From: Heterodontus francisci
Lineage: Eukaryota
Direction: 5' to 3'
Assembly (NCBI RefSeq): GCF_036365525.1
Contig: NC_090418.1
Coordinates: 6,798,304-6,862,303 of the forward strand
Length of the DNA stretch: 64,000 bases
Made by a program: the position numbers and the translations under genes. The notes below the pieces were generated by a model that did not search any database, was not told the DNA's origin, and saw only the letters and a list, made by a program, of their open reading frames with translations. How positions within the stretch are numbered: position 1 is the stretch's first letter; every line of letters starts with the position of its first letter. This document shows, one piece after another, positions 5,063-59,012 of the stretch.

Positions 5063-5074
5063 TGGATTGGATCC

Positions 5075-14640: not shown

Positions 14641-14864
14641 CTTAATTGCAAACCTAAAACCTAGCAAGAGAATGTAAAGTGTCTCCTCCAAACTCACTCC
14701 CCAACCAGCTCCAGCAGAACAGGATAACACAAGCCACATTTCCAGGGGAAATGTCACCCAACCACCCCCCACCTCAGTAAGGCATGCTCCAATATTCTGA
14801 AGAGCAGAACAAGAGCTCTGTTAGACCAGGGATAGAAGGACGAGATCCAATGGCTGGATTAATA

Positions 14865-15060: not shown

Positions 15061-15157
15061 GTTTATGTGCTGTGTTTTACTGGGGTAACTTTATTGGCCA
15101 AGTATTCAGCAAGGGCGCTCACCAATGATCTGGTAGAAAGCTGCCCACAAATATCTT

Positions 15158-20869: not shown

Positions 20870-20875
20870 TTTATT
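20870..20875 (-). terminator. Candidate polyadenylation signal AATAAA (alternatives: ATTAAA ~21052, AATAAA ~20389)
   Basis: Plus-strand tttatt ~500 nt downstream of the stop codon; the candidates cannot be ranked from sequence alone. Confidence 0.4.
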
Positions 20876-21367
20876 CAGCTCGCAAGGTGCAATTACAGGA
20901 ATGATTCCAAAATGTTTCCCTTGAACAGTCAGAGAATGTCACTCCAGGATTACTCCAAATTCTATTAGATGTGTTTGAATGAATGCAGCTCTGATGGTGT
21001 CTCAGCTAATTACAGTTGGAAGAGATCATCCCAGTTTTTATCTACATATATTTTAATTAATGCACTAATCATAAAGGACAAATCTCCATATAAAGAATGT
21101 TACTTGACGGATAACAATTGCGCTCCAAGGATCTCCAGTCAGAGAACCAGGAAGAAGACCTTTCTCATGAGTGCTGGCATCATTTGTGGTTGTTGTGACC
21201 TTCACCACCAAACAGGCTGGTCCACAGTGGTGAGTTGTGGTGTTCCTGGAGCATCTGTTGTCCTCGGTGCGACGGATCCAACAGTGAAGGAATGTCCCTT
21301 TTTAAGCAGCTACTGATTTCATGCGAAGCAAATTATGAGCAGAAGCAGCAAATACGTCTGAAAGGGA

Positions 21368-21387
21368 TCAAATCCAGGGATAGTATC
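21368..21387 (-). CDS. Terminal coding exon GYYPWI*
   Basis: tttctttcctgattttcag|GATACTATCCCTGGATTTGA; strong acceptor, phase-1 reading repeats GYYP. Confidence 0.85.
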
Positions 21388-24300: not shown

Positions 24301-27300
24301 ATGCGACAGTTGGTTTCTTGTTTCATGCTATTTTTGAATGTGTCCTGTTCAGCAGGAAGCTGAAGGCTTGACCCAGGTCACAGAATCAAGTCATTTTATT
24401 CATTACAATCTTGAGATCTACTGCACAATCTACAATCAATGTACCGCGACCTCTACCACCTAGAAGTGCACGGGCATGTGAGGCGGGTACACTCACAGTG
24501 CTGTTCGGAAGGGAGGTGCAGGATTTGGGCCCAGCAACAGTGAAGGAACGGCGATATAGTTCCAGGTCAGGATGGTGTGTGACTTGGAGGGGAACTTGCA
24601 GGTGGTGGTGTTCCCACGGATTTGCTGCCCTTGTCCTTCTAGTTGGTAAAGGTTGCGGGTTTGGAAGGTGCTGTCTAAGGAGCCTTGGTGCATTGTTGCA
24701 GTGCGTTTTGTAGATGGTACACACTGCTGCCATTGTGTGTCGGTGATGGAGGGAGTGAATGATTGTGGATGGGGTGCCAATCAAGTGGACTTCTTTGTCC
24801 TGGATGGTGTCGAGATCTTGTGTGTTGTTGGAGCTGCAGGCATCCAGCCAAGTGGAGAGTATTCCATCATACTACTGACTTGTGCCTTGTAGATGGTGGA
24901 CAGGCTTTGGGGAGTCAGGAGGTGACATAGTCGCCGCAGGATTCCTAACCTCTGACCTGCTCTTGTAGCCATGGTATTTATATGGCTACTCAAGTTCAGT
25001 TTCGGGTCAATGGTAGCCCCTAGGATGTTGATAGTGGGGGATTCAGCAATTGTAATGACATTGAATGTCAAGGGGAGTTGGTTCCATTCTCTCTTGTTGG
25101 AGATGGTCATTGCCCGGCACTTGTGTGGTGTGAATGTTACTTGCCATTTATCAGCCCAAACCTGGATATTGTCCATTCATATGAAGATCTAAACTCTTGC
25201 ACCAAAAGCAGGGAGTGAAATAGTTTTCATCTCTGTTTGCACAATGTTTAGATTGTTTTACATTTTTATACACAAATTAATTTTACCATTCATAGCTGTT
25301 TTATCTCAATGTACACATTTTCTGGATGAAGTTTTGTGATAAATGCAATGGCGGACAGGTATGAATTGTGTGACATCCCTGTCCGCTACTAAGTGCAACT
25401 GTTAAGCAGTTAATTGGAAAAAAAATGTTCACTCCTGTCTGATACAGATGCTGCAATTTTTAACGCATGTTGGTTCAATGTCAACTTGGATCAATCTACA
25501 TTGTTCTGGACAATGATCACATTTCAGGGCAGGACAGAGACCTGAGTTGCTCAGGTAGTCCTTACTCCAGTTGGTTTGTTTGTTCATGCTATTCCTGAAC
25601 GTGTCATGTTCAGCTGGAAGCTGAAGGCTCTTGACCCAGGTCACAGAATCAAGCCATTTTATTTATTGCAAACTTGATAGATACTGCACAATCTCTGTGG
25701 TGGTTTTCATTGAGGACTGTGTCTCCTTTCTCCTCATGCTCCTATTGATATTTCTGCCAATTATCTTAAACCTGTGTCCTCTGGTTATGGATCTTTTTGC
25801 CAGTAGAAACAATTTCTCCTTCTTTTCAATCAAAAGCTTTCTTAACTCTGAACATGTCAATTACATCTTCCCTGAAAATGGTTTCCTCTAAGGAGGACAA
25901 TCTCAGCTTCTCTAGTCTCTCTGCATCAATGAAGACATTATGCTGAGGGCTGTTGTTTGTCTTTGGGTATTGTGAACAGTATCTCTCAGAGTGTCTGCAT
26001 TATTGTTTCAGGAGATTAAAACACGCAAATTTTGACAATAAATTATCTCAATAAAAAATGTTACCTTTGCCATAAGAGGGGTAACAATCTGTGGGGGATA
26101 AACAGATTTGTGTTAACATTGACTGCTGAAAATCAAGTGGAGATTCACATCTTCAACACAATTTGTTCAGTAACGGAAACATTCAGTATTGCATCATTCA
26201 AACATTCTATGGACATTATCATTAATACTCAATTCCCTTACGTTTTTCATCTCTGCACCCTCTCATATGAATATCTATCCTCTTGCAACAAAAGCAGGAA
26301 GTGAAAACATTATACATCTTTTTATAAAGTATAGTTTGGTTCAAATCCTTACAAATTAAATTAATTTTACCATTCACAGCCGCTTCACTTCAATGCATTA
26401 CATGTTTTCTAGCTTAATCTTTGTGCTAAAAACATTAGTGGACAGTTATGAGTTGTGTGACATTCCCATGTCCGCTATTTAGTGCAGCTGGTAAACTGTT
26501 AATTGAGAAATAAAATCTCCCCTGAATGACACAGATGCAGCAATTTTTAATCCTGTTGTTGAAATATCAAAGTGGATAAATCTACATTGCGTTCTGGCCA
26601 ATGATCATACGACATTTTGGCCAATCATCTTAAATCTGTGTCCTCTGGTACCTGCACTCCTGGCAGTTGAAACAATTTCTCCTTCTTTAGCCAAACAGAA
26701 TCTGTCTTAATTCTGATCATCTCGATTAAATCTCCCCTGAACATTCTTTCCTCTAAGGAGAACAATCCCCGCTTCTCCAGTCTCTCTCCATCACTGAAGT
26801 CCTTGTGCTGAGGACTGTTGCTGTCGAAGGATGTTTGGGCAGAAATCTGCCTCTGCTGCAGTGGTGACCCTGCTCCGTGTTCCCTGGAACATTTGGTCCC
26901 TCCAGCACGTGGCCATGATTCCAGGGATTTTCCACTATGAGACAATATAAGTGTAGCTGAAACACTCCCAGTGTAATCACTATCTGAGGGTGAGAGTGAG
27001 GATATTCAGATTTCCTGGGCGGGAACTGAAATCCGCCACTGCAGCTTTTGAAAGAGGTCGCTAAACTTCTCGTCGGTGACAAGGTTTGATGTTGGGAATT
27101 TCGCGCTGTAGAATGGTGGGAGACGGTCAGATGAAAGCTTTCATCACTAATATTAATCGGTGGAAATGTACATCTTTAGCAGTTTTGCAATTAATGAAAA
27201 ACAGCCAATGAGCAGCGGGATGGCACAGTGAAGGGATTGTTGTGTGGGTATTGTGAACAGTTTCAATCAGAATGTCTGCATTATTTTTCCTGGAGATCAA

Positions 27301-30300
27301 AACGCGTCAAAATTGAGAATAAATTCTCTAAATAAAAATATTTACCGTAGCTGCAATAGTGGTAACAGACTGTGAGGAGAAACAGATTTGTGTTAACATT
27401 GTCTGCTGAGAATCAAGTGGAGATTCACATTTTCAACACAATCGGTTCACTAACAGAAAGATACAGTATCGCTCAGATTAACGATTGGTGTAGATCACTC
27501 AAACATGAAATAGACGTTATTCGTTGAAGCTTATTCATCTCTGCACCCTCTGATAGGACATTCTATCCTCTTGCACCAAAAGGAGGGAGTGAAATAGTTA
27601 ATCATTTCTGTTTACACAAGATATGGTTTTGTTGAAATCTTTACAAATTAAATTAATGATAACTTTCATGCCCGTTTGTTTTCAATGAATTATGAGTTTT
27701 CTAGCTTTATCTTTGTGATAAAAGCATTAGTGGACGGTTAGGTTATGAGCTGTGTGACATTCACCTCGCTGCTATTCAGTGCAGCTGTACAGCTGTTAAT
27801 TGAAAAAATAGTTCACTCCTGCATGACAAGGATACAACACTTTTATTCAATTTGTTCAAATATCAACTTGGAGAAATTTACACAGCAGTCTGAACACTGA
27901 ATACATCTCAGGGCAGGACAGAGACCTGAGCTGCTCAGAAGATCCTTGCTCCAGTTGCTTTGTTTTTTTACGCTATTCCTGAATGTGTCCTGTCCAGCAG
28001 CAAGCTGAAGCTTCTTGACCCAGGTCATAGAATCAATTCAATCTATTCATTGCAATCTTGAGAGCTACTGCACAATCTCAGTGGTGGTTTTCATTGGGTA
28101 CTGGGTCTACTTTGTATTCATGTCCACCCCCTGACATTTATTTGTGAAATATCTTACATCTTGCCTTCTGGTCACCGCCCTTCCTGCCAATGGAAACAAT
28201 TTCTCCTTCTTTACCTAATCAAAAACTGTCTTAATTCTGATCATCTCCATTAAATCTCTCCTGTACATTCTACCCTCTAAGGAGAACAATCCCAGCTTCT
28301 CGAGGCTCTCTCCATCACTGAAATCCTTGTGCTGAGGACTGTTGCTGTGGAAGAATGTTTGAGCAGAAATCCACCTCTGCTGCCGTGGTGACCCTGCTCC
28401 GTGTTCCCTGGAACATTTTGTCCTTCCAGCACATGGCCGGGAATTCCAGGGATTATCCACAGTTCCACAATATAAGTGCAACTGAAACTCCCAGTGTAAT
28501 GACCATCTCAGGGTGCGATTGGGGAAATTCAGATTTTCTGGGCAGGAGCTGAAATTCGCCACTGCAGCTTTTCAAAGTGGATGCTAAACTTCTCATCGGT
28601 GACAAGGTTTGAGGTTGGGAATTTCGTGCTGTGAAATGGTGGGAGACGGTCAGATGAATGCAATCTGTCACTCTTATCAACCAGAGGAAATTTACACCAT
28701 AAACTATTTGGGTTTAGATGAGAAGCAGCCAGTGAGCAGTAGAATGATGCTGTGAAAGGATTTGGGCTTGGGTATTTTGAACTGTATCACTCAGAGTGTC
28801 TGCATTATTGCTTCTGGAGATTAAAACATGCAGAAAACTGACAATAAATTTTCTTGTTGAAAATATTTACCATAGTGTCCATGATTATAATATCCTGTGG
28901 GTAGAAACAGATTTGTGTTAACATTGTCTGCTGCGTTTCGAGTGGAGATTTACATTTTGAACACAATTTGTTCAGTAACTGAAACATTCAGTGTTGCTCG
29001 GATTAGGATTGAAGTCGATCTTTCAAGCATTTAATGTACATTATCATTAATACTGATTTCATTTAAGCTTATTCATCTGTGAACCCTCTCCTATGAATAT
29101 CTAACCTCTTCCACCAAACGCAGGGAGTTAAATAGTTATTCACCTCTGTTTTCACAAAGTATGGTTTTCTTGAACTCCTTACAAAATGAATTTATTTTAC
29201 TATTTGAGCAGGGAAGTTATGCTGGAACTGTATAAATCGTTGGTTAGGCCACAAATTGAGTACTGTGTGCTGTTCTGATCACCTCATTACAGAAAGGATA
29301 TAATTGCACTGGAGCTGTTACAGAGGAGATTAACGAGGATGTTGCCAGGACTGAAAAAATACAGCTGTGAGGAAAGATTGGCGAGGCTGGGGTTGTTCTC
29401 CTTGGAATAGAGAATGCTGAGGGGAGATCTGATTGAAATGTACAAAATTATGCGGGGGCCTGGATAGAATGGAGGTGAAGGGCCTATTTACCTTAGCAGA
29501 GATGTCAGTGACTAGGGGACATTGATTTAAAGTGATTGGTCGAACGATTAGAGGGGAGATATGGAAATAAATTTCATGAGAGGGTGGTGGGGGTCTGCAA
29601 CTCACTGCCTCAATGGGTAGTTGAAACAGAAACCCCCAACTCATTCAAATGGAGTCTGGATATGCATCTCAAGGGCCGTAACAAGTGCCGCAATCCGCAG
29701 GGCTACAGACCAAATGCAAGAAGGTGGCATTGGACTTGGAGGATTGTTGTTTGGCCGGCACAGACATGATGGGCCAAGTGGCCGCTTTCTGTGCTGTAAC
29801 CTTTCAATGATTCTATGATTTTATTGTCCCCACTGCATTTCAATGCACTATTATTTTCGAGGTCACTCTTTGTGATAAATACTTTGTTGGACCGTTATGC
29901 GATGAGCTGTGTGACATTCCCTCGTCCGCTATTTAATGAAGCTTTAGACAGGTCACTGCGGATAAAGCTCACTGCTGCGTGACAAGGGTGCCTGAGCTGA
30001 AAACCGATACTACAGTTTCTGAAAGAGGACGCAGAACTTCTCGTCGGTGACAAGGTTTGAAGTTGGGAATTTCGTGCTGTGAAATGGTGGGAGACGGTCA
30101 GATGAATGCATTCTGTCATTAATATCAACCAGAGGAAAATTACACCTTGGACTGTTTTGGTTCCTTCCGATGAAGGGTCACTGACCCGAAACGTTAACTC
30201 TGCTTCTCTTTCCACAGATGCTGCCAGACATGCTGAGTGGTTCCAGCATTTCTTGTTTTTAATTCATTTCAGTAACTGGAACATTCAGTATTGCACGAAT

Positions 30301-33300
30301 TAGGGATTGATGTCGATCTTTTAAACATTGAATGGACGTTACCATTAATACCAATTTGTTTAAGCTTGTTCATCTCTGCACCCTCTCACACCAACATCTA
30401 TCCTGTTGCATGAAAGGCAGGGAGTGAAATAGTTATTCATTTCTGTTTTCACAATGTATGGTTTTGTTGAAATCCTGACAAATGAAATGAATGTTACCAT
30501 TTGCACCCATTTCATTTCAATGCATTATAACTTTACTGGCTTAATCTTTGTGATAAAAACGTTAGTGGACAGTTATGTGACATTCCCCTGTTTGCTTTTT
30601 AATGAAGCTGTTAAACAGGTATTTGCAAAAACAATTCACTCCTGTATGATAGGGATGCAACACTTTTAAATGCATTTTATTCACATATCAACTTGGATAA
30701 AATCATTTTGATCATTTCCAGTTTGCAGGCCTCCTCTTGGGACGTTCAATCTCTCTACACCTCCATCCCCCACCTGGGCGGTTTGAAGGCTCTTCGCTTC
30801 TTCCTTGAACAGAGAGCCAACCGGCCCCCATCCACTACCACCCTCCTCCACCTTGCTGAACTTGTTCTCACATTGAACAACTTCTCCTTCAACTCCACTC
30901 ACTTCCTTCATCTAAAAGGTGTTGCTATGGGTACCCGCATGGGTCCGAGTTATGCCTGTCTTTTTGTGGGATATGTCGAACATTCCTTGTTCCACTCCTA
31001 CTCAGGCCCTATCCCCCAACTCTTTTTCTGGTACATTGATGACTGTATCGGTGCTGGTTCCTGCTCTTGTCCCGTACTGAAAAACGTTATCAACTTTGCT
31101 TCTAATTTCCACCCTTTTCTCACTTTAACATGGTCCATCTCCAACACTTCCCTTCCTCGACTTCTCTGTCTCCATCTCAGGGGATAGGCTGTCTACTAAT
31201 ATTCATTATAAGCCCACCGAATCCCACAGCTACCTCGACTATACTTCTTCACACCCTGCCTCCTGTAAGGACTCCATTCCATTCTCCCAGTTTCTCCATC
31301 TCCGACGCATCTGCTCTGATGATGCTTCCTGATGTGTCTTCCTTTTTCCTCAATCGAGGATTCCCCCCACTGTGGTTGACAGGGCCCTCAACCATGTCTG
31401 GCCCATTTCCCGCACCTCTACCCTCATCCCGTCCCTCCCTCCCAAAACCGAGACAGGGTTCCCCTTGTCCTCACTTTCCACCCCACCAGCCTCCACATCC
31501 AAAGGTTCATCCACCGCCATTTCCGCCACCTCCAGTGTGATGCCACTACTAAACACATCTTCCCCTCCCTTCCCCTGTTAGCATTCTGAAGGGATCGTTC
31601 CCTTCATGACACCTTGGGCCACTCATCCATTACTCCCACCATCTCGTCCCCTTCCCATGGCACCTTCCCCTGCAATTGCAGGAGATATAATGCCTGCCTA
31701 TTTCCCTCCTCTCTCCTCACTATCCATGGCCCCAAACATTCCTTTCAGGTGAAACAGCGATTTACTTGTACTTCTTTCAATTTAGGATACTGTAGTTGCT
31801 GCTCACAATGTAGTCTCCTCTACATTGGTGAGACCAAATGCAGACCAGGTGACCGCTTTGCGGAACATCTCCGCTCAGACCGAAAGCATGACCCTGAGCT
31901 TCCGGTTGCTTGCCATTTCAACACTCCCCCCTGCTCTCATTCTCACATCTCTGTCCTGGAATTGCTGTAGTGTTCCAGTTAACATCAACGCAAGCTCGAG
32001 GAACAGTATCTCATTTATTGATTAGGCACGCTACAGCCTGCCGGACTGAACATTGAGTTCAATAATTTCAGAGCATGAAGGGCCCCCCTTTTTATTTTTA
32101 TTTTTAGTTATTCTTCCTTTTTTTCTTTTTTCTTTTTTAAGTGATTATTTTATTTTAGCTTGTTTAGTTTGTTTCTGCTGTGCTTACCCACAGTTTTTTT
32201 TTTCATGTTTGTGCTTGGGGCCAGGCTGCTCAGTTTTCTGTCCATTAACACCCCCTCTGTACTAACGCTTTGTCTTTCACCACACCATTAGCAAACCGTT
32301 TGCCTTTGCTCCATGACCTTCTGGTCAGTTATTCTCTGTGACCTTGTCCTATCAACACCTCTTTTGTTATCTCTTGCTACACCCCCGCTTTACTTGGTTA
32401 AAACCTTTTACATTTCTAACATCTGCCAGTTCTGATGAAGGGTCACTGACCTGAAACTTTAACTCTGCTTCTCTCTCCACAGATGCTGCCACACCTGCTG
32501 GGTATTTCCAGCATTTCTTGTTTGCGTTTGGATAAATCTGCAGTGCGGTCTGGCCAATGATCACATCTCAGGACAGGACAGAGTCCTGAGCTGCTCAGAA
32601 AGTGCTTTCTCCAATTCATTTGTTTGTTCAAACTATTCCTGAATGTGTCCTGTCCAGCAGGAAACTGAAGCCTCTTGACCCAGGTCACAAAATCAATTCA
32701 TTTTATTCATTGCAATCTTGTGAGTTACTGCACAATCTCAATGTTGGTTTTCACTGGGTACTCAGTCTGATTTCTATTCATGTTCACCCCCTGGCATTTT
32801 TGCGAACTTTCTTAAATTTATATCCTCTGGTTAAGGACAATCATGTCAATGGAAACAATTTCTCCTTCATTACCCAATCAAAAACTGTCCTAATTCTGAA
32901 CATCGGGATTAAATCTCCCCTTAACATTATTTCCTCTAAGGAGAACAATCCCCGCTTCTCCTGTCTCTCTCCATCACTGAAGTCCTTGTGCTGAGGACTG
33001 TTGCTGTTGAAAGGTGTTTGGGCAGAAATCCGCCTCTGCTGCAGTGGTGTCCCTGTTCCTTGTTCCCAGGAAAATGTTGTCCCTCCAGCACATAGCCGGT
33101 AATTCCAGTGTTTTTTCCCTGTCCCAGAATGTAAGTGCAGCTGAAACACTCCCAGTGTAATCACTATCTCACAGTGAGATTGGGGAAATTCAGATTTCCT
33201 GGGCAGGAGCTAAAATCCGCCACTGCAGCTTTTCAAAGAGGACGCTTAACTTCTCGGCGGTGACAAGGTTTGAGGTTGGGAATTTCGTGCTGTGAAATGG

Positions 33301-36300
33301 TGGGAGACGGTCAGATGACTGCATTCTGTCACTAATATCAACCAGAGGAAATTTACACCTTGAACTGTTTGGGTTCAGATGAGAAGCAGCCAATGAGCAG
33401 CGGGATGGTGCAGTGAAGGTGTTGATGTGTGGGTAATGTGAACTGTATCTCACAGACTGTCGGCATTATTGTTTCTGGAGATTAAAACACCCCAAAAAAT
33501 TGACAATATATTCTCAGAGTAAACATATTTACCATCGTCTCCATGAGGATAATATCCTGTGTGGAGAAACAGATTTGTGTTAACATTGTCTGCTGAGATT
33601 CAATGGAGATTCACATTTTGTTCACAATCAGTTCAGCAACTGAAACATTCAGTATTGCACGGATTAGGGATTGAAGTGGATCTTTCAAACATTAAATGGG
33701 CATTATCACTGACACTGATATCATTTAAGCATCTTCATTTCTGCTCTACTATGAATATCTAACCTATTGCACACAACGCAGGGATTCAACTAGTTGTTCA
33801 TCTCTGTTTTAAACAAGCGTGTTTTTTTGAAATCTTTGCAACCAAAATTAATTTTACTATTCGCACTTTCTTTTTGACGATGTTTATACCTTTACTCGCT
33901 TAATTATTGTGATAATAAGATTCGTAGACAATTTAGTTATGAGCTGTGTGACTTTCCCTGGCTGTGACTTAATGAAGCTGTTAAACAGTTAATTGCAAAA
34001 TAAAGTTCACTGCTGTGTGACAAGGATGCAACACATTTTAATCCATTTTTTTTTCAAATATCAACTTAGATAAATCTAACACTGGGATCTGGCAATGATC
34101 ACATCTCAGGGCAGGGCAGAGACAGAGACCTGAGCTGCTCAGAAAGTCCTTGCTCCAATCAGTTTGTTTGTTCATGCAGATGAATGCATTCTCTCACTAA
34201 TATCACCCAGAGGAAATTTACACCTTTACACCTGTTTTGGAACACAGGAGAAGCAGCCAATGTGCAGCAGGATAGTGCATTGAAGGGATTTGGGTTTGGA
34301 ATTGTGAACAGTTTGGCTCTGCATTGTTTCTGGAGATTTAAACATGCAACAGTCGGACAAAAATATTCTCGTCAGAAAAATATTTACCATCGTATTTTGT
34401 ATATTTTTTCCCTGTGGCGGGGAAACAGATTTGTGTTAAGATTGCAGAGAATCAATTGAAGATTCACATTTTCGACACAAACAGTTCAGCAATTAAAACA
34501 TTCCATATTACGCGGATTAGAAATTGGTGTGGAACTTTCAAACATTAACTTGACATGACCATTCATACTGATTTCATTTCAGGTTGATCATCTCTGCACT
34601 CTCTCATACAAGTGTCTAACCTCTTGCACCAAAAGCAGGGAGTAAAATAGTTATTCATCTCTGTTTTCCCAAAGTATGGATTGGTTTAAATTTTTATGAG
34701 CTAATTAATTTTATCATTCACAGCGGCTTGATTTCAACCTATACGTTTTCTGCCTGAATCTTTGTGATAAATGCCTCACTGGACAGTTATAACATTCTCC
34801 TCTCCTGCCAGTGGAATCAATTTCTCCTTCTTTACCCAATCAAAAACTGTCTTAATTCTGAACATCGGGATTAAATCTCCCCTGAACATTCTTTTCTCTA
34901 AGGAGAACAATCCCAGCTTCTCCTGTCTCTCTCCATCAGTGACGTCCTTGTGCTGAGGACTGTTGCAGTTGAAGGATGTTTGGGCAGAAATCCGCCTCTG
35001 CTGCAGTGGTGATCCTGCTCCGTGTTCCCTGGAACATTTTGCTATTCGAGCACATGGCCAGGATTCCAGGGATTTTCCACTGTCCCAGAATTTGAGTGAA
35101 ATCGGAACACTCCCAGTTTCATCAGTTTCTCAGCGTGAGAGTGAGGCAATTCAGATTTCCTGGAGAGGAGCTGAAATCCGTCACTGCAGCTTTTGATAGA
35201 GGACGCTAAACTTCTCGTCGGTGATAAGGATTGAGGTTGGGAATTTCACGCTGTGAAATGGTGGGAGACGGGCAGATCATTGTCACTAATATCAAACAGT
35301 GGAAATTGACACCATGAACTGTTTTGGTGGAGATGAGTAGCAGCCAATGAGCAGCGAGATGGTGCAGTGAAAGTGTTGGTGTGTGGGGAATGTGAACAGT
35401 ATCTCTCAGACTGTCGGCATTATTGGTTCTGGAGATTAAAACACCCCAAAAAAATTGACAATACATTCTCAGAGTAAACATATTTACCATCGCCTCCATG
35501 AGGATAATATCCTGTGTGGAGAAACAGATTTGTGTTAACGTTGTCTGCTGAGATTCAAGTGGAGATTAACATTTTGTTCACAAACAGTTCAGCAACTGAA
35601 ACATTCAGTATTGCACGGATTAGGGATTGAAGTGGATCTTTCAAACATTACAGGACATTATCACTGACACTGATATCATTTAAGCTTATTCATTTCTGCT
35701 CTACTATGAATATCTAACATCTTGCACACAACGCAGGGATTCAACTCGTTGTTCCTCTCTGTTTTAAAAAAGCGTGTTTTTTTGAAATCTTTGCAAACAA
35801 AATTAATTTTACTATTTGCACTTTCTTTTTGCCGATGTTTATACCTTTACTCGCTTAATTATTGTGATAATAATATTCGTGGACAATTAAGTTCTGAGCT
35901 GTGTGACATTCCCTGGCTGTGACTTAATGAAGCTGTTAAACAGTTAATTGCAAAATGAATTTCACTGCTGTGTGACAAGGATGCAACACATTTTAATCCA
36001 TTTTTTTTGTCAAATATCAACTTGGATAAATCTACACTGGGGTGTGGCCAATGATCACATCTCAGGGCAGAACAGAGACCTGAGCTGCTCAGAAAGTCCT
36101 TGCTCCAATCAGTTTGTTTGTTCATGCAGATGAATGCATTCTCTCACTAATATCACCCAGAGGAAATTTACACCTTTACACCTTTTTTGGAACACAGGAG
36201 AAGCAGCCAATGTGCAGCAGGATAGTGCATTGAAGGGATTTGGGTTTGGAATTGTGAACAGTTTGGCTCTGCATTGTTTCTGGAGATTTAAACATGCAAC

Positions 36301-39300: not shown

Positions 39301-42300
39301 CTCCAATCGATTTGTTTATTCTTGCTATTCCTGAATGTGTCCTGTCCAGCAGGAAGATGAAAGCCTCTCGACAAATGTCACAGAATCAAGTCATTTTATT
39401 CATTGTGATCTTGAGAGCCACTGCGCAGTCTCAGTGGTGGTTTTCATTTGGGAACGATACCTAATTTCTATTCATGTTGCCCCCGATATCTTTGCGAAAT
39501 ATCTTACATTTCTGTTCTCTGGTTCCTGACCCTCCTGCCAGTGGAAACAATTTCTCCTTCTTTACCCAATCAAAAACTGTCTTAATTCTGAACATCGGGA
39601 TTAAATCTCCCCTGAACATTCTTTCCTCTGAGGAGAACAATCCCCGCTTCTCCTGTCTCCTCCATCACTGAAGTCCTTGTGCTGAGGACTGTTGCAGTTG
39701 AAGGATGTTTGGGCAGAAATCCGCCTCTGCTGCAGTGGTGATCCTGCTCCGTGTTCCCTCGAACATTTTGCCACTGGAGCACATGGCCAGGATTCCAGGG
39801 ATTTACCACTGTCCCAGAATTTGAGTGAAACCGGAACACTCCCAGTTTCATCAGTGTCTCAGCGTGAGAGTGGGGCAATTCAGATTTCCTGGAGAGGAAC
39901 TGAAATCCGTCACTGCAGCTTTTGATAGAGGACGCTAAACTTCTCGTCGGTGATAAGGATTGAGGTTGGGAATTTCACGCTGTGAAATGGTGGGAGACGG
40001 GCAGATCAATGTCACTAACATCAACCAGAGGAAGTTTACACCATGAACTGTTTTGGTGCAGATGAGAAGCAGCCAATGAGCAGCGAGATGGTGCAGTGAA
40101 GGTGTTGGTGTGTGGGTAATGTGAACAGTATCTCTCAGACTGTCGGCATTATTGTTTCTGGAGATTAAAACACCCCAAAAAATTGACAATACATTCTCAG
40201 AGTAAACATATTTACCATGGTCTGGATGAGGATAATATCCTGTGTGGAGAAACAGATTTGTGTTAACATTGTCTGCTGAGATTCAAGTGGAGATTAACAT
40301 TTTGTTGACAATCAGTTCAGCAACTGAAACATTCAGTATTGCACGGATTAGGGATTGAAGTGGATCTTTCAAACATTACAGGACATTATCACTGACACTG
40401 ATATAATTTAAGCTTATTCATCTGTGCACCCTTTCCTCTGAATATCTAACCTCTTGCATAAAAAGCAGGGACTCAACTAGTTGTTCATCTCCGTTTACAC
40501 AAAGTGTGTTTTTTTGAAAGCTTTGCAAACGATATTAATTTCACTATTCGCACACTCTTTATGCCGATGTTTATACCTATACTCGCTTTATTGTTGTGAT
40601 AAAAATGTTAGTGGACAATTAAGTTCTGAGCTGTGTGACATTCCCCTGGCTGTGACTTAATGAAGCTGTTAAACAGTTAATTGCAAAATAAAGTTCACTG
40701 CTGTGTGACAAGGATGCAACACATTTTAATCCATTTTATTCAAATATCAACTTAGATAAATCTAACACTGGGATCTGGCAATGATCACATCTCAGGGCAG
40801 GGCAGAAACAGAGACCTGAGCTGCTCAGAAAGTCCTTGCTCCAATCAGTTTGTTTGTTCATGCAGATGAATGCATTCTCTCACTAATATCACCCAGAGGA
40901 AATTTACACCTTTACACCTGTTTTGGAACACAGGAGAAGCAGCCAATGTGCAGCAGGATAGTGCATTGAAGGGATTTGGGTTTGGAATTGTGAACAGTTT
41001 GGCTCTGCATTGTTTCTGGAGATTTAAACATGCAACAGTCGGACAAAAATATTCTCGTCAGAAAAATTTTTACCATCGTATTTTGTATATTTTTTCCCTG
41101 TGGCGGGGAAACAGATTTGTGTTAAGATTGCAGAGAATCAATTGAAGATTCACATTTTCGACACAAACAGTTCAGCAATTAAAACATTCCATATTACGCG
41201 GATTAGAAATTGGTGTGGAACTTTCAAACATTAACTTGACATGACCATTCATACTGATTTCATTTCAGGTTGATCATCTCTGCACTCTCTCATACAAGTG
41301 TCGAACCTCTTGCACCAAAAGCAGGGAGTAAAATAGTTATTCATCTCTGTTTTCCCAAAGTATGGATTGGTTTAAATTTTATGAGCTAATTAATTTTATC
41401 ATTCACAGCGGCTTGATTTCAACCTATAAGTTTTCTGCCTGAATCTTTGTGATAAATGCCTTACTGGACAGTTATAACATTCTCCTCTCCACTACTTAAT
41501 GCAGCGGTTAAACATTTCAGTGGAAAAAAAATCTTCACTTCAACAAGATAAAGATACAGCACTTTTTCATCAATGTTGAAATATGAATTTGGATAAATCT
41601 ACACTGGGGTCTACCCAATGATCACATCTCAGGACAGGACAGAGAACTGAGCTGCTCTGGAAGTCTTTGCTCCAATCGATTTGTTTGTTCTTGCTATTCC
41701 TGAATGTGTCCTGTCCAGCAGGAAGATGAAAGCCTCTCGACAAATGTCACAGAATCAAGTCATTTTATTCATTGTGATCTTGAGAGCTACTGCGCAGTCT
41801 CAGTCGTGGTTTTCATTGGGGACTGTGTCTAATTTCTATTCATGTTGCCCCCGATATCTTTGCGAGATATCTTACATTTCTGTTCTCTGGTTACTGACCC
41901 TCCTGCCAGTGGAAACAATTTCTCCTTCTTTCCCCAATCAAAAACTGTCTTAATTCTGAACATCGGGATTAAATCTCCCCTGAACATTCTTTCCTCTTAG
42001 GAGAACAATCCCCGCTTCTCCTGTCTCCTCCATCACTGAAGTCCTTGTGCTGAGGACTGTTGCAGTTGAAGGATGTTTGGGCAGAAATCCGCCTCTGCTG
42101 CAGTGGTGATCCTGCTCCGTGTTCCCTCAAACATTTTGCCACTCGAGCACATGGCCAGGATTCCAGGGATTTACCACTGTCCCAGAATTTGAGTGAAACC
42201 GGAACACTCCCAGTTTCATCAGTGTCTCAGCGTGAGAGTGGGGCAATTCAGATTTCCTGGAGAGGAACTGAAATCCGTCACTGCAGCTTTTGATGGAGGA

Positions 42301-45300
42301 CGCTAAACTTCTCGTCGGTGATAAGGATTGAGGTTGGGAATTTCACGCTGTGAAATGGTGGGAGACGGTCAGATCAATGTCACTAATATCAAACAGTGGA
42401 AATTTACACCATGAGCTGTTTTGGTGCAGATGAGAGGCAGCCAATGAGCAGCGAGATGGTGCAGTGAAGGTGTTGGTGTGTGGGTAATGTGAACAGTATC
42501 TCTCAGACTGTCGGCATTATTGTTTCTGGAGATTAAAACACCCCAAAAAATTGACAATACATTCTCAGAGTAAACATATTTACCATGGTCTGGATGAGGA
42601 TAATATCCTGTGTGGAGAAACAGATTTGTGTTAACATTGTCTGCTGAGATTCAAGTGGAGATTAACATTTTGTTCACAAACAGTTCAGCAACTGAAACAT
42701 TCAGTATTGCACGGATTAGGGATTGAAGTGGATCTTTCAAACATTACAGGACATTATCACTGACACTGATATCATTTAAGCTTATTCATTTCTGCTCTAC
42801 TATGAATATCTAACATCCTGCACACAACGCAGGGATTCAACTCGTTGTTCCTCTCTGTTTTAAAAAAGCGCCTTTTTTTGAAATCTTTGGAAACAAAATT
42901 AATTTTGCTGTTCGCACTTTCTTTTTGCTGATGTTTATACCTTTACTCGCTTAATTATTGTGATAATAATATTCGTGGACAATTTAGTTCTGAGCTGTGT
43001 GACATTCCCTGGTTGTGACTTAATGAAGCTGTTAAACAGTTAATTGCAAAATGAAGTTCACTGCTGTGTGACAAGGATGCAACACATTTAATCCATTTTT
43101 TTTTTCAAATATCAACTTGGATAAATCTACACTGGGGTGTGGCCAATGATCACATCTCAGGGCAGAACAGAGACGTGAGCTGCTCAGAAAGTCCTTGCTC
43201 CAATCAGTTTGTTTGTTCATGCAGATGAATGCATTCTCTCACTAATATCAAGCAACAGAAATTTACACCTTTAACCATTTTGGAACACGGAAGAAGCACC
43301 GGGATAATGCAGTGATTCGGATTTGGGTTTTGAATTGTGAACAGTTTGGCCCTACATTACTGTTTCTGGTGATTTAAACATGCAACAATCGGATAATAAA
43401 TTCACGTAATAAAAAATATTTACCACCGTATTTCGTACCTTTTTCCCGTGGTGGTGCGAGGAGGCGTGGAAACAGATTTGTGTTAAGATTGCAGAGAATC
43501 AAGTGAAGATTCATATTTCAACACAATCAGTTCAGTAATTGTAACATTCAGTATTGCTCGGATTAGAAATTGGTGTGGAAATTTCAAACATTAGCTTGAC
43601 ATTCCCATTCATACTGATTTCATTTAAGATTGTTCATCTCTGCACCCTCTCATACAAATGTCTAACCTCTTGCACCAAAAGCAGGGAGTAAAATAGTTGT
43701 TCATCTCTGTTTTTCCAAAGTATGGATTGGTTCAAATTTTTATGAGCTATTTAATTTTATCATTCACAGCGGCTTGATTTCAACCTATAAGTTTTCTGCC
43801 TGAATCTTTGTGATAAATGCATTACTCGACAGTTATAACGTTCTCCTCTCCACTACTTAATGCAGCGGTTAAACATTTCAGTGGAAAAAAACATGTTCAC
43901 TTCAACATGATAAAGATACAGCACTTTTTCATCAATGTTGAAATATGAATTTGGATAAATCTACACTGGGGTCTACCCAATGATCATATCTCAGGACAGG
44001 ACAGAGACCTGAGCTGCTCTGGAAGTCTTTGCTCCAATCGATTTGTTTGTTCTTGCTGTTCCTGAATGTGTCTTGTCCAGCAGGAAGATGAAAGCCTCTC
44101 GACAAATGTCACAGAATCAAGTCATTTTATTCATTGTGATCTTGAGAGCTACTGCGCAGTCTCAGTGGTGGTTTTCATTGGGGACTGTGTCTAATTTCTA
44201 TTCATGTTGCCCCCGATATCTTTGCGAAATATCTTACATTTCTGTTCTCTGGTTACTGACCCTCCTGCCAGTGGAAACAATTTCTCCTTCTTTACCCAAT
44301 CAAAAACTGTCTTAATTCTGAACATCGGGATTAAATCTCCCCTGAACATTCTTTTCTCTAAGGAGAACAATCCCCGCTTCTCCTGTCTCCTCCATCACTG
44401 AAGTCCTTGTGCTGAGGACTGTTGCAGTTGAAGGATGTTTGGTCAGAAATCCGCCTCTGCTGCAGTGGTGATCCTGCTCCGTGTTTCCTATAACATTTTG
44501 CCACTCGAGCACATGGCCAGGATTCCAGGGTTTTTCCACTGCCCCAGAATTTGAGGGAAACCGGAACACTCCCAGTGTTATCACCGTCTCAGCGTGAGAG
44601 TGGGGCAAATCAGATTTCCTGGAGAGGAGCTGAAATCCGTCTCTGCAGCTTTTGATAGAGGACGCTAAACTTCTCGTCGGTGATAAGGATTGAGGTTGGG
44701 AATTTCACGCTGTGAAATGGTGGGAGACGGTCAGATCAATGTCACTAATATCAAACAGTGGAAATTTACACCATGAGCTGTTTTGGTGCAGATGAGAGGC
44801 AGCCAATGAGCAGCGAGATGGTGCAGTGAAGGTGTTGGTGTGTGGGTAATGTGAACAGTATCTCTCAGACTGTCGGCATTATTGTTTCTGGAGATTAAAA
44901 CACCCCAAAAAATTGACAATACATTCTCAGAGTAAACATATTTACCATGGTCTGGATGAGGATAATATCCTGTGTGGAGAAACAGATTTGTGTTAACATT
45001 GTCTGTTGAGATTCAAGTGGAGATTAACATTTTGTTCACAAACAGTTCAGCAACTGAAACATTCAGTATTGCACGGATTAGGGATTGAAGTGGATCTTTC
45101 AAACATTACAGGACATTATCACTGACACTGATATCATTTAAGCTTATTCATTTCTGCTCTACTATGAATATCTAACATCTTGCACACAACGCAGGGATTC
45201 AACTCGTTGTTCCTCTCTGTTTTAAAAAAGCGCCTTTTTTTGAAATCTTTGGAAACAAAATTAATTTTGCTGTTCGCACTTTCTTTTTGCTGATGTTTAT

Positions 45301-48300
45301 ACCTTTACTCGCTTAATTATTGTGATAATAATATTCGTGGACAATTTAGTTCTGAGCTGTGTGACATTCCCTGGTTGTGACTTAATGAAGCTGTTAAACA
45401 GTTAATTGCAAAATGAAGTTCACTGCTGTGTGACAAGGATGCAACACATTTAATCCATTTTTTTTTTCAAATATCAACTTGGATAAATCTACACTGGGGT
45501 GTGGCCAATGATCACATCTCAGGGCAGAACAGAGACGTGAGCTGCTCAGAAAGTCCTTGCTCCAATCAGTTTGTTTGTTCATGCAGATGAATGCATTCTC
45601 TCACTAATATCAAGCAACAGAAATTTACACCTTTAACCATTTTGGAACACGGAAGAAGCACCGGGATAATGCAGTGATTCGGATTTGGGTTTTGAATTGT
45701 GAACAGTTTGGCCCTACATTACTGTTTCTGGTGATTTAAACATGCAACAATCGGATAATAAATTCACGTAATAAAAAATATTTACCACCGTATTTCGTAC
45801 CTTTTTCCCGTGGTGGTGCGAGGAGGCGTGGAAACAGATTTGTGTTAAGATTGCAGAGAATCAAGTGAAGATTCATATTTCAACACAATCAGTTCAGTAA
45901 TTGTAACATTCAGTATTGCTCGGATTAGAAATTGGTGTGGAAATTTCAAACATTAGCTTGACATTCCCATTCATACTGATTTCATTTAAGATTGTTCATC
46001 TCTGCACCCTCTCATACAAATGTCTAACCTCTTGCACCAAAAGCAGGGAGTAAAATAGTTGTTCATCTCTGTTTTTCCAAAGTATGGATTGGTTCAAATT
46101 TTTATGAGCTATTTAATTTTATCATTCACAGCGGCTTGATTTCAACCTATAAGTTTTCTGCCTGAATCTTTGTGATAAATGCATTACTCGACAGTTATAA
46201 CGTTCTCCTCTCCACTACTTAATGCAGCGGTTAAACATTTCAGTGGAAAAAAACATGTTCACTTCAACATGATAAAGATACAGCACTTTTTCATCAATGT
46301 TGAAATATGAATTTGGATAAATCTACACTGGGGTCTACCCAATGATCATATCTCAGGACAGGACAGAGACCTGAGCTGCTCTGGAAGTCTTTGCTCCAAT
46401 CGATTTGTTTGTTCTTGCTGTTCCTGAATGTGTCTTGTCCAGCAGGAAGATGAAAGCCTCTCGACAAATGTCACAGAATCAAGTCATTTTATTCATTGTG
46501 ATCTTGAGAGCTACTGCGCAGTCTCAGTGGTGGTTTTCATTGGGGACTGTGTCTAATTTCTATTCATGTTGCCCCCGATATCTTTGCGAAATATCTTACA
46601 TTTCTGTTCTCTGGTTACTGACCCTCCTGCCAGTGGAAACAATTTCTCCTTCTTTACCCAATCAAAAACTGTCTTAATTCTGAACATCGGGATTAAATCT
46701 CCCCTGAACATTCTTTTCTCTAAGGAGAACAATCCCAGCTTCTCCTGTCTCCTCCATCACTGAAGTCCTTGTGCTGAGGACTGTTGCAGTTGAAGGATGT
46801 TTGGTCAGAAATCCGCCTCTGCTGCAGTGGTGATCCTGCTCCGTGTTTCCTATAACATTTTGCCACTCGAGCACATGGCCAGGATTCCAGGGTTTTTCCA
46901 CTGCCCCAGAATTTGAGGGAAACCGGAACACTCCCAGTGTTATCACCGTCTCAGCGTGAGAGTGGGGCAAATCAGATTTCCTGGAGAGGAGCTGAAATCC
47001 GTCTCTGCAGCTTTTGATAGAGGACGCTAAACTTCTCGTCGTTGATAAGGATTGAGGTTGGGAATTTCACGCTGTGAAATGGTGGGAGACGGACAGATGA
47101 ATGTCACTAAGATCAAACAGAGGAAATTTACACCATGAGCTGTTTTGGTGCAGATGAGAAGCAGCCAATGAGCAGCGAGATGGTGCAGTGAAGGTGTTGG
47201 TGTGTGGGTAATGTGATCAGTATCTCTCAGACTGTCGGCATTATACCTATACTCGCTTTATTGTTGTGATAAAAATGTTAGTGGACAATTAAGTTCTGAG
47301 CTGTGTGACATTCCCCTGGCTGTGACTTAATGAAGCTGTGAAACAGTTAATTGCAAAATGAAGTTCACTGCTAGAACATAGAACATAGAACATAGAACAG
47401 TACAGCACAGTACAGGCCCGTCGGCCCACGATGTTGTGCCGAACCTTTAACCTATTCTAAGATCTAAGTAACTACCTACCCTTCATTCTACTATCATCCA
47501 TGTACCTATCCAAGAGTCTCTTAAATGTCCCTAATGTATCTGCTTCTACTACCATCGCTGGCAGCGCATTCCACGCACCCACCACTCTCTGTGTAAAGAA
47601 CCTACCTCTGACATCTCCCCGAAACCTTCCTCCAATCACCTTAAAATTATGCCCCCTGGTGATAGCCCTTTCCACCCTGGGAAAAAGTCTCTGACTATCC
47701 ACTCTAACTATGCCTCTCATCATCTTGTACCCCTCTATCAAGTCACCTCTCATCCTTCTTCGCTCCAATGAGAAAAGCCCTAGCTCCCTCAATCTTTCTT
47801 CGTAGGACATGCCCTCCAGTCCGGGCAGCATCCTGGTAAATCTCCTCTGCACCCTCTCTAAAGCTTCCACATCCTTCCTATAATGAGGCGACCAGAACTG
47901 AACACAATATTCCAAGTGTGGTCGAACCAGGGCCTTATAGAGCTGCAGCATAACCTCGCGGCTCTTAAACTCAATCCCCCTGTTAATGAAAGCCAACACA
48001 CCATATACCTTCTTAACAACCTTATCAACTTGGGTGGCAACTTTGAGCGATCTATGGACATGGACCCCAAGATCCCTCTGTTCCTCCACAGTACCAAGAA
48101 TGCTGTCTTTAAGCCTGTATTCCGCATTCAAATTCGCCCTTCCAAAATGAATCACTTCACACTTTTCCAGGTTGAACTCCATCTGCCACCTCTCAGCCCA
48201 CTGCTGCGTGACAAGGATGCAACACATTTTAATCCATTTTGTTCAAATATCAACTTGGATAAATCTACACTGGAGTCTGACCAATGATCACATCTCAGAG

Positions 48301-51300
48301 CAGGGCAGAGACCTGAACTGCTCAGAAAGTCCTTGCTCCAATCAGTTTGTTTGTTCATGCAGATGATTGCATTCTCTCACTAATATCACCCAGAGGAAAT
48401 TTGCACCTTTACCCATTTTGGAACACAGGAGAAGCAGCCAATGAGCAGCCGGATAGTGCAGTGAATGGATTTAGGTTTGGGAATTGTGAACAGTTTCACT
48501 CTGCATTACTGTTTCTGGAGCTTTAAACATGCAACAATCGGATAAAAAATTCTCGTCATTAAAATATTTACCACTGTATTTCCTACCCTTTTCCCTTGGG
48601 GTGCGGGGAGGCAGGGAAACAGATTTGTGTTAAGATTGCAGAGAATCAAGTGAAGATTCACATTTTCAACACAATCAGTTCAGCAATTGAAACATTCAGT
48701 ATTGCATGGATTCGGGATTGGTGTGGAAATTTCAATCATTAACTTGACGTTACCATTGATACTGATTTGATTTAAGCTTGTTCATCTCCGCACTCTCTCA
48801 TACAAATGTCTAACCTCTTGCACCAAAAGCAGGGAGTAAAATAGTTATTCATCTCTGTTTTCCCAAAGTATGGATTTTTAAAATTTTTTATGAGCGAATT
48901 AATTTTATCATTCACAGTGGCTTGATTTCACCGTTTAATTTTTCTGCCTGAATCTTTTTGATAAATGCATTAGTGGACTGTTATAACATTGTCCTGACCA
49001 CTACTTAATGCAACTGTTAAACATTTCAGTGGAAACAAAAATGTTTACTCCGACATGATAAAGATACAGCACTTTTTAATCAATGTTGAAATATGAATTT
49101 GGATAAATCTACACTGGGGTCTACCCAATGATCACATCTCAGGACAGGACAGAGACCTGAGCTGCTCTGGAAGACTTTGCTCCAATCGATTTGTTTGTTC
49201 TTGCTATTTCTGAATGTATCCTGTCCAGCAGGAAGATGAAAGCCTTTCAAAAAATGTCATAGATACAAGTCATTTTATTCATTGCATTATTGAGAGCTGC
49301 CATACAATCTCTGTGGTGGTTCTCATTGGGTACTGTGTCTATATTCTATTCATGTTCACCCCCTGACATATTTTATGAAATATCTTAAATTTATGTCCTC
49401 CTGTTACTGGCCCTCCTGCCAGTGGAAACAATTTCTCCTTGTTTACCCAATCAAAAACTGTCTTAATTCTGCACATCGGGATTAAATCTCCCCTTAACTT
49501 TCTTTCCTCAAAGGGGAACAATCCCCACTTCTCTACTCTCTCTCCATCACTGAAGTCCTTGTGTTGAGCACTTGCTGTTGAAGGATGTTTGAGCAGAAAT
49601 CCGCCTCTGCTGCAGTTGTGACCCTGCTCCGTGTTGCCTGGGATTTTGTGTCCCTCCGGCACATGGCCAGGATTCCAGGGATTTTCCGCTGTCCCAGCAT
49701 TGAATTGAAACTGGAACACTCCCAGTGTAATCACTGTGTGATCGGGGAAATTCAGACTTCCTGGGCAGGAGCTGAACACAACCACTGCAGGTTTTGAAAG
49801 TGGTCGCTAAACTTCTCGTCCGGGACCAGCTTGGAGGTTGGGAATTTCGTGCTGTGAAATGGTGGGAGACGGTCAGATGAATGCATTCTGTCACTAATAT
49901 CAATCAGGAAATTGAGACATTTAACTGTTTTAGTTCAGATGAGGAGCAGCCAATGAGCAGCGGGATGGTGCAGTGTGGGGATTGGTGTGTGGGTATTGGG
50001 AACAGTATCTATCAGAGTGTCTGCATTATTGCTTTTGGAGATTAAAACACGCAAAATATTGACAATAAGTTCTCAGACTAATAATATTTACCATGGCCTC
50101 CAGGAAGATAATCTCCTGTGTGGAAAAACAAATTTGTGTTAACACTGTCTGCTGAGATTCAAGTGGAGATTCACATTTTGAACACAATCAGTTCAGTAAT
50201 TGAAACATTCAGTCTTGCACTGATCAGGAATTGAAGTCGATCTTTCAAACATGAAATGGACATTTTCATTAATACTGATTTCGTTTAAGATTATTCATCT
50301 GTGCACCCTCTCCTACGAACATCTAACCTCTTGCACCAAACTCAGGGACTCAACTAGTTGTTCATCTCTGTTTACACAAAGTGCTTTTAAAAAAAATCTT
50401 TACAAACTGAATCTATTTTACTTATGGCACCCTCTTTATGCCAATGTTTATACCTTTACTCGCTTAATTAATGTGATAAAAATGTTAGTGGACAATTAAG
50501 TTCTGAGCTGTGTGACATTCCACTGGCCGCGACTTAATGAAGCTCTTAAACAGTTAATTGCAGAATAAAGTTCACTGCTGTGTGACAAGGATGCAACACA
50601 TTTTAATCCATTTTGTTCAAATATCAACTTGGATAAATCTAACACTGGGGTCTGACAATGATCACATCTCAGGGCAGGGCAGAGACCTGAGCTGCTCAGA
50701 AAGTCCTTGCTCCAATCAGTTTGTTTGTTCATGCAGATGAATGCATTCTCTCACTAATAACACCCAGAGGAAATTTACACCTTTACACCTGTTTTGGAAC
50801 ACAGGAGAAGCAGCCAATGTGCATCATGATAGTGCAGTGAAGGGATTTGGGTTTGGAATTGTGAACAGTTTGGCTCTGCATTGTTTCTGGAGATTTAAAC
50901 ATGCAACAATCGGACAAAAATATTCTCGTCAGCAAAATATTTACCTTTGTCTTTCTTATCTTTTTTCCCTGTGGCGGGGAAACAGATTTGTGTTAAGATT
51001 GCAGAGAAGCATGTGAAGATTCACATTTTCGACACAAACAGTTCAACAATTAAAACATTCAGTATTGCGCAGATTAGAAATTGGTGTGGAAGTTTCAAAC
51101 ATTAACTTGACATGACCATTCATACTGATTTCATTTCAGCTTGATCATCTCCGCACTCTCTCATACAAGTGTCTAACCTCTTGCACCAAAAGCAGGGATT
51201 AAAATAGTTATTCATTTCTGTTTTCCCAAAGTATGGATTGGTTAAAATTTTATGAGCTAATTCATTTTACCATTCACAGCGGCTTGATTTCAACAGATAA

Positions 51301-53540: not shown

Positions 53541-53597
53541 GGTTGCGGTGAGTTGTCTGCCAGTTGGTGTGGTGCATTGTACACTGCGGACTCAGGG

Positions 53598-53605
53598 TTT
53601 ATATA
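53598..53605 (-). promoter_or_regulatory. TATA box (TATATAAA) of copy B
   Basis: Plus-strand tttatata, 57 nt upstream of the ATG at 53540; compatible with a transcription start ~25-30 nt downstream and a short 5'UTR. Confidence 0.75.
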
Positions 53606-54059
53606 CATTTTATGAACAGACCTGCTGAGCAGGTTTTGGCTCTGTTTAGAACAGGTGACGCTCTGATTTAAGCTTGAATCAATCTTTCTGACAAGCATGG
53701 CAAAGGCGATGAAATGTCAGCCAAAAGATAAAGCATTAATTGGATCACCGAGGAGCATGTGCTCATTTTTCTGGCTACCAACCCCGGCCTGTCCAATCTA
53801 TGAGAATCCACGGGCATACTGAAACAAGGCCCCTGTTTTAGGCAGAAAACAACAGAGGGCGAGTTTCTTTGGCTGCGGGTTGGAGGAGGATGGAGGATGT
53901 GGGGTCTCTGCCTTGGCAGTCGTGGAGTTGGGCAGAAGTTTGACAGAAGCTTGTTTACATGTGGGGGCAGTTTATCCACCCAGGGTGTGACGAGGCAGCA
54001 GAACGGATCACCTCCCAAATTCAGCAAATTCAAGAAACAGAGTCTAACGACTGTTATCA

Positions 54060-58981: not shown

Positions 58982-59012
<31 letters not shown>

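Follow-up and report, generated by a model that had tools for sequence, protein, structure and literature searches.

Elasmobranch egg-capsule material contains fractions rich in Gly, Tyr and Pro and hardens by catechol oxidation; its sequenced proteins are hybrid collagens, and its non-collagen parts are known mainly from amino-acid analysis. Here we describe a gene on the minus strand of a 64,000-nucleotide (nt) stretch of Heterodontus francisci DNA (hereafter the window: contig NC_090418.1, called C48 below, positions 6,798,304-6,862,303, in a genome of 6.0 Gb). It belongs to a real, apparently undescribed family of vertebrate micro-exon genes, and the family probably encodes an oxidatively cross-linked extracellular structural protein. 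Several described systems resemble it. Tropoelastin shares exon borders that are all phase 1:1, a first exon coding for the signal alone, replicated pairs of Lys and spacer exons, and Cys near a basic C-terminus (bioRxiv 10.1101/2024.12.03.626628). The micro-exon genes (MEGs) of schistosomes share a signal peptide, very small symmetrical exons, a multigene organisation and fast evolution of the mature region (PMC4350168); they are, however, described as restricted to flatworms, whereas the present family is vertebrate, uses homologous cassettes of a fixed Tyr-rich style, and has exon skipping only as a presumption. Mussel foot proteins and the His-rich beak proteins of squid likewise carry short Tyr/Lys/Gly/His-rich repeats suited to condensation and quinone cross-linking: Dopa, Cys, Lys and His are all targets of quinone adduct formation, Dopa-Lys pairs occur in mussel foot proteins, and squid beak proteins use GHGXY repeats, with His- and Tyr-rich repeats driving condensation (PMC9999432). 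These proteins are molluscan and without sequence homology to the family, in which DOPA is only presumed. Finally, SCPPs, including an elasmobranch scpp, are clustered, secreted, low in complexity and Tyr-rich, with 8-residue repeats (PMC9122587), and actinodins are Tyr-rich extracellular proteins with C-terminal repeats (PMC6497306, PMC13120675). The plan of the gene mirrors that of tropoelastin and the schistosome MEGs without sequence kinship to either.

The gene runs from position 53540 to about 20855 of the window. Its splicing pattern is predicted from sequence and its signal peptide was assigned by eye; on this basis the signal-peptide exon is followed by one of 15 nt and then by fifteen intact 24-nt exons of phase 1-1, and the gene closes with a stop-bearing exon and a 3′ exon. 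Its features, with the basis of each in brackets, are as follows.

53598-53605, minus strand: TATA-like box about 60 nt upstream of the ATG (sequence)
53489-53540, minus strand: coding part of exon 1, a 17-residue hydrophobic signal peptide, with a phase-1 donor (sequence)
51681-51695, minus strand: 15-nt phase 1-1 exon, N-terminus of the mature chain (exon call)
50945-50968, minus strand: 24-nt Lys/Asp exon without Tyr (exon call)
50092-50115, minus strand: 24-nt Gly/His/Tyr exon of a divergent Tyr type (exon call)
48572-48594, minus strand: damaged Lys-type cassette of 23 nt without an in-frame acceptor, probably skipped (exon call)
47244-48199, strand not given: insertion, which we take to be of long interspersed nuclear element (LINE) type, with a 7-nt repeat tail and a small deletion, at the place expected for a Tyr exon (sequence)
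45786-45821, minus strand: Lys-type cassette that lacks the usual AG; use of the following AG would give an in-frame 15-nt exon (sequence)
44946-44969, minus strand: 24-nt Tyr/His exon (exon call)
43424-43459, minus strand: second Lys-type cassette without the usual AG (sequence)
33533-42607, minus strand: nine strictly alternating 24-nt exons, with a two-exon unit of about 2.36 kb (exon call)
Starts at 42607, 40239, 37873, 35511 and 33556, minus strand: Tyr/His-type members of the alternating run (exon call)
Starts at 41097, 38726, 36361 and 34411, minus strand: Lys-type members of the alternating run (exon call)
28871-28894, minus strand: 24-nt Tyr/His exon (exon call)
27346-27369, minus strand: 24-nt Cys/Tyr exon with two Cys (exon call)
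26065-26088, minus strand: 24-nt Cys/Tyr exon with one Cys (exon call)
23736-23760, minus strand: 25-nt exon coding for a short basic tail and then a stop 8 nt ahead of the last junction (exon call)
20855-21387, minus strand: last exon, beginning with a GYYP motif and a phase-1 stop, followed by the 3′ untranslated region (UTR); probable 3′ end

Twenty homologous cassettes follow the signal exon, all in one common branch-point and acceptor context. Of these, the 15-nt exon and the fifteen of 24 nt, sixteen in all, are in frame; one has 23 nt, two lack the usual AG and the last, of 25 nt, carries the stop. The cassettes are ordered as an N-terminal, a Lys and a Tyr cassette, three damaged Lys cassettes around one Tyr, nine alternating, one Tyr, two Cys and the stop exon. 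An earlier sequence-only reading had reported GYYP[HY]xx[HD] exons alternating with GKKxxKYD exons between 26065 and 50968. Both exon types are real: the six of the first kind (44969, 42607, 40239, 37873, 35511, 33556) and the four of the second (41097, 38726, 36361, 34411) all lie on the minus strand with 24 nt, AG/GT ends and phase 1-1, and the example peptide given in that reading crosses the junctions of exons 41097, 40239 and 38726 correctly. Strict alternation, however, is confined to the nine exons from 42607 to 33556, and upstream it is interrupted by the Lys cassettes near 45809 and 43447, which lack the usual AG and in which the next available AG would give an in-frame 15-nt exon, and by the 23-nt cassette at 48594 without an in-frame acceptor. 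Both limits of the reported interval are exact exon ends, but the gene extends beyond them on either side. The signal-peptide exon is conserved across 11 aligned copies, a TATA-like motif precedes 15 of 15 examined signal exons, and the AATAAA at 20870-20875 is kept in 12 of 15 tested copies. The 25-nt stop exon is common to six copies, and a 24-nt open form occurs in another paralogue. Three further cassettes, at about 30260, 25200 and 22290, have kept the intron and lost the exon, the break being the start of unrelated sequence.

The motif CAG, 24 nt, GTRA occurs 19 times between 26000 and 51000, whereas 100 dinucleotide shuffles gave 4.1 on average and 9 at most; this is a weak control since the DNA is repetitive and neighbouring lengths also give 1-16 hits. 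The frame test is stronger evidence than this motif count that the exons are real. In the proximal cluster the caller permitted 9-42 nt, yet 258 of the 276 exons that it called are a multiple of three nucleotides long, and 15 of the 18 others are a shared 23-nt cassette and the terminal 25-nt exon. Among 93 distinct 24-nt exons, stops occur in two in the frame used and in 11 and 52 in the other frames. The caller was trained on flanks from the window itself, and divergent cassettes may escape it. In 59 of 66 pairs compared, exon divergence exceeds that of the flanking introns (identity 0.43-0.45 between Lys and Tyr exons, 0.71-0.76 between their flanks), a contrast somewhat overstated as the flanks were aligned with gaps (unrelated baseline 0.54) and the exons without. 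Since Lys and Tyr cassettes share 71-76% of intron but only 43-45% of exon sequence, we conclude from these alignments that all cassettes derive from one ancestor, with the exon evolving faster than its flanks. Between near neighbours pN/pS is about 1.2 (37 non-synonymous and 7 synonymous changes in 36 non-independent pairs).

The predicted precursor has 147 residues with three Cys near its end; skipping of the stop exon would give 148 residues with an altered end. The mature chain of 130 residues and 15.2 kDa contains 29 Tyr (22%), 23 Gly (18%), 21 Lys (16%), 18 Asp (14%), 14 His (11%), 13 Pro (10%), 3 Cys and four aliphatic residues, and its computed isoelectric point is 8.5. Such a chain, which all but lacks a hydrophobic core and has one Tyr per four to five residues, is best read as the precursor of an insoluble matrix, and it is on the signal exon, the frame-preserving micro-exons, this composition and the gene amplification that we base the reading as a cross-linked structural protein. 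The product would be small, secreted and probably unfolded, a precursor from which a hardened extracellular material forms, and would be released in bulk from one gland or epithelium, and its Tyr, Lys and His may drive condensation after secretion. An oxidase (tyrosinase/catechol oxidase or peroxidase) might then convert Tyr to DOPA-quinone or dityrosine, which would bond to nearby Lys, His and Cys, while the three C-terminal Cys could contribute disulphides or thiol adducts. Sequence does not discriminate between quinone, dityrosine, lysyl-oxidase and transglutaminase chemistry. The phase 1-1 exons would allow repeat number to change by unequal crossover and exon skipping, and the paralogues may provide different styles of cross-linking.

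The sequence-only reading had proposed an egg-case or elastoidin precursor with Tyr donor and Lys/His acceptor modules. The structural part of this proposal fits in so far as the product is predicted to be secreted, low in complexity, rich in Tyr, Gly, Lys and His, nearly devoid of aliphatic residues (4/130) and recently amplified; a secreted, Tyr-rich protein with Lys, His and Cys nucleophiles is also what quinone tanning would use. The division of labour fares less well, as Tyr is present in the Lys exons and His in the Tyr exons, a single repeat unit of one paralogue contains both Tyr and Lys, and two Glu/Arg/Ser/Gly-rich paralogues have no His. As for the tissue, the egg capsule is the likeliest single site, which we suggest tentatively because of the biochemistry of its Tyr-rich fractions. 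Skin, denticle, cartilage or another matrix appears rather unlikely, and fin rays improbable; the fin-ray option is weakened by work on zebrafish that attributes the Tyr-rich component of elastoidin to actinodins (PMC6497306, PMC13120675). A fuller version, which we hold to be possible but doubtful, is that this family makes up the non-collagen Tyr-rich fraction of the capsule: one 24-nt cassette would have been copied hundreds of times into Tyr/His, Lys, Gln/Cys and Glu/Arg modules and amplified together with separate secreted tyrosinase-like curing enzymes, and annotation would have missed the family because its exons are 24 nt long.

Several observations weigh against a structural role of this kind or its placement in the capsule. 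Collagen is named as the major egg-capsule component (PMC10230700), and the neighbours found for the cluster are immune genes, a C1s-like protease and a V-set immunoglobulin (Ig) domain. None of 18 tyrosinase matches in the genome lies on C48. Fast exon divergence and the pN/pS of about 1.2 suit relaxed or diversifying selection equally with a structural role. Moreover, 3 of 20 cassettes of the window gene are damaged, several paralogues look broken, and the paralogue that matches a putative RNA contig (X3, see below) is free of His and rich in Glu, Arg and Ser.

The family has been amplified recently. Across the genome there are 18 matches to the signal exon, 12 at C48:6.29-7.16 Mb, three at 14.7-15.1 Mb and three on contig C721, and 16 matches to the last exon. 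Within the 0.87-Mb cluster lie five adjacent 47-kb units, that of the window gene included, which are 97-99% identical over most collinear blocks and hold 18-21 cassettes each. As cassette order differs between them, the units are real recent duplications, which argues against an assembly duplicate. Our survey of the family covered 862 kb, with C48:6.49-6.60 Mb and most of C721 outside it, and gave 299 candidate exon sites. In all 11 paralogues with at least three in-frame exons, Tyr makes up 12-30% of exon-coded residues despite differing repeats. A giant paralogue at C48:7.015-7.134 Mb has 68 in-frame micro-exons over 119 kb, coding for about 540 residues (29% Tyr, 18% Asp, 17% Lys), in which Tyr/Asp exons alternate with Lys/Pro exons before a run of GYYPYKGY type. 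Two genes at C48:6.29-6.46 Mb alternate Glu/Tyr/Arg with Gly/Ser exons; in this Glu/Arg type an early exon has an in-frame stop (6,298,141 and 6,399,363), and a full product would need its skipping. The paralogue at C48:6.68-6.71 Mb has 21-nt exons, one of them 22 nt, with Gln-Gln modules alternating with Lys/Cys modules, a pairing that a transglutaminase could use; a LINE with an open frame of 1150 residues lies inside it. More distant genes have Gly/Tyr and Ala/Pro exons, and broken paralogues lie at about 6.63, 7.00 and 7.16 Mb.

Whatever the tissue, symmetric micro-exons make up nearly all of these vertebrate genes, an architecture known from schistosome MEGs and partly from elastin. The family marks a gene class that standard annotation likely misses, and its copy number lends itself to a comparison of egg-laying with live-bearing species. 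If the structural reading is right, the family would supply sequences and tryptic peptides for a sclerotised vertebrate material and short DOPA/Lys/His repeat designs for biomaterials. We did not find a description of the family in the literature searched, although most subscription papers, including those on shark egg-case biochemistry, lay outside that search. Protein searches were weak, their queries being unspliced genomic frames holding 8-17 true residues: the frame of a Tyr exon gave one candidate and none at E ≤ 10, the signal-exon alignment no homologue among 8000 scored candidates, and the Glu/Arg-exon frame of a paralogue no candidate. Since the spliced protein was not used in any search, prior annotation of the family in a database is not excluded. 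The signal frame had no Pfam match. HMMER over 1.84 billion representatives returned two long repetitive proteins, which we rejected as they matched profile positions 7-23, mostly untranslated leader.

By the features tested, the family is not elastin, SCPP, lamprin or collagen. In the 270 exon peptides there is no run of four Gly-X-Y, in which the family differs from the collagenous hybrid proteins of the egg capsule, and 0 of 52 C1q matches in the genome lie on C48. The lamprin motif GGLGY is likewise found in none of the 270, and the Cys-Pro-Asp repeat of actinodins neither in any of them nor in their concatenation. A query with MAGP (MFAP2/MFAP5) gave four matches, on C37 and the small contig C1032 and none on C48; 21 kb at the C1032 gene hold one 36-nt phase-1 exon, and matches to cluster DNA there are scattered and repeat-like.

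Among the alternatives, the one that survives best is that these genes code for variable defence or mucosal peptides, that is His/Tyr/Lys-rich metal-binding or antimicrobial secretions in the manner of histatins, diversified by MEG-like exon skipping. The product may resemble histatins and has 11% His and 16% Lys, its exons diverge fast, and C1s and V-set Ig exons flank the cluster; a signal peptide followed by mostly small symmetrical exons is indeed what the family has, as do MEGs, in which the mature part shows a high ratio of non-synonymous to synonymous substitution (PMC4350168). We nevertheless regard it as unlikely. The mature protein is near neutral (21 Lys versus 18 Asp), a polymer suits the long series of identical repeats (one paralogue has as many as 68 in-frame exons) better than a set of antigens does, and neighbouring genes do not fix function.

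That the proteins belong to the mineral matrix of enameloid, dentine or tesserae and converged on SCPPs is quite unlikely. Such a role would account for a tandem cluster of secreted, Tyr-rich, disordered proteins with short exons, for paralogues with up to 29% Asp or 17% Glu, and for the SxE within 14 of 270 exon peptides, and the elasmobranch Scpp also has a Tyr-rich region and an 8-residue repeat (PMC9122587). SCPP introns, however, are phase 0 whereas those of the family are phase 1 throughout, none of eight SPARC-domain matches, taken as a test of the sparc-L locus, falls on C48, PDYxxP is found in 0 of 270 exon peptides, and the window protein has two Ser and no Glu.

An elastic-fibre-like protein, with lysyl oxidase cross-links at KxxK and the Tyr exons as spacers, is improbable. 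Of the 270 exon peptides, 31 contain KxxK and 21 contain KxxKY, and the alternating exon pairs and Cys/basic end recall tropoelastin (bioRxiv 10.1101/2024.12.03.626628), as do borders that are all phase 1:1. Tropoelastin, however, is built of hydrophobic Gly/Val/Pro domains (VPG/hGG) in alternation with Ala-Lys or Pro-Lys domains, whereas the family is a Tyr/His/Asp protein of 15 kDa: VPG and KAAK are both absent from the 270 exon peptides, there are almost no hydrophobic residues (4/130 aliphatic), and in place of two Cys and a terminal RKRK there are three Cys and a short Lys-rich tail. Rather than a single gene beside LIMK1 there is a multigene cluster with 18 signal-exon matches next to C1s and V-set genes; LIMK1 itself was not located, and GTF2I, which we take to mark the elastin region by linkage, maps to contig C30 in 11 of 11 matches and to C48 in none.

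A largely neutral expansion, in which repeats multiply by unequal crossover and the window copy is decaying, would fit the damaged cassettes, the exon-removing insertions, the broken paralogues and a pN/pS near 1 but is very improbable, as 16 internal exons are in frame without a stop, promoter, signal exon and poly(A) signal are intact, and frame is kept and stops are avoided across 93 distinct exons.

Around the cluster, about 20 kb past the last signal exon, there is a protease domain without introns that has complement C1s as its best solved match (E 1e-71); a CUB exon and another protease exon follow farther out. Human C1S lies at 12p13. A V-set Ig exon, possibly of the NKp30/CD28H receptor type, lies about 23 kb ahead of the first signal exon (C48:6,270,971-6,271,459). 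C48 also carries G-protein-coupled receptors similar to CYSLTR1, P2RY2/4 and GPR17/LPAR6. Pfam scans of 135 of 274 representative open reading frames in or near the cluster gave mobile-element or weak domains only, and those of 86 of 129 flank frames gave the protease, CUB and V-set exons. Genome-wide marker searches, which here and for GTF2I, SPARC and C1q above score only the best candidates, placed 0 of 7 S100 and 0 of 131 intermediate filament (keratin locus) matches on C48. Tyrosinase-like N-terminal matches number seven on contig C1038 (0.62-0.92 Mb) and one on C937 (195 kb), plus three single loci. The two C1038 genes examined start with leaders that resemble signal peptides; in the one aligned to human TYRP1 (E 5e-51) the histidines of the first site are retained. 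These C1038 and C937 genes are candidate extracellular catechol oxidases, and by their sequence the cluster shows a capacity, not a link to the micro-exon family. Tandem C1q-domain genes at C3:116.8-117.1 Mb (six with open frames of more than 600 residues) and C30:26.4-26.9 Mb (five matches) are possible short-chain or egg-case collagens.

Of five sequencing runs whose library type is guessed to be RNA, contigs from four (X1, X2, X3 and X5; two samples, two organisms) were compared over 20700-40690, or 20 of the gene's 33 kb. All four runs have contigs that in part overlie the last exon within 20946-21348, and no micro-exon joint is among the contig joints listed. The X3 contig differs from the window at 19 positions, the same count as for the 6.29-Mb paralogue over that span, shares the listed alleles with it and ends where that paralogue diverges. 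The X1 and X2 contigs are allele mixtures absent from any single assembled copy and match 0 of 13 last exons compared in full. Contig ends at 20946-20980 adjoin variant positions and so are not taken as a transcript end. Two further observations might point to spliced RNA but, as both depend on lack of cover, were not counted as evidence: near-zero depth in several bins of family-specific intron, and 202 unplaced letters at the 5′ side of the X3 contig, although the paralogue intron is about 90% like the window. On the egg-case question these putative RNA contigs say nothing. In the same region, paralogues that otherwise differ strongly have 3′ UTRs (20945-21350 of the window and the last exons of the paralogues) that are 91-98% identical and share allele patches in mosaic order, which suggests gene conversion.

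The window also takes in part of the neighbouring unit, as follows.

1-16338, strand not given: duplicate of 47260-64000, 98.2-99.8% identical, the 47-kb unit carrying one whole gene
1313-6333, minus strand: 5′ part of the next gene copy, with its signal exon at about 6282-6333 and exons at 4436, 3709, 2856 and 1335 (sequence)

Between both gene copies lies a perfect 65-nt inverted repeat with a 4-nt loop (17935-18068). Immediately upstream of each promoter are a 47-bp minisatellite (6854-8016 and 54061-55315), with a two-copy difference between the units, and a 69-bp minisatellite (8200-8439 and 55499-55738).

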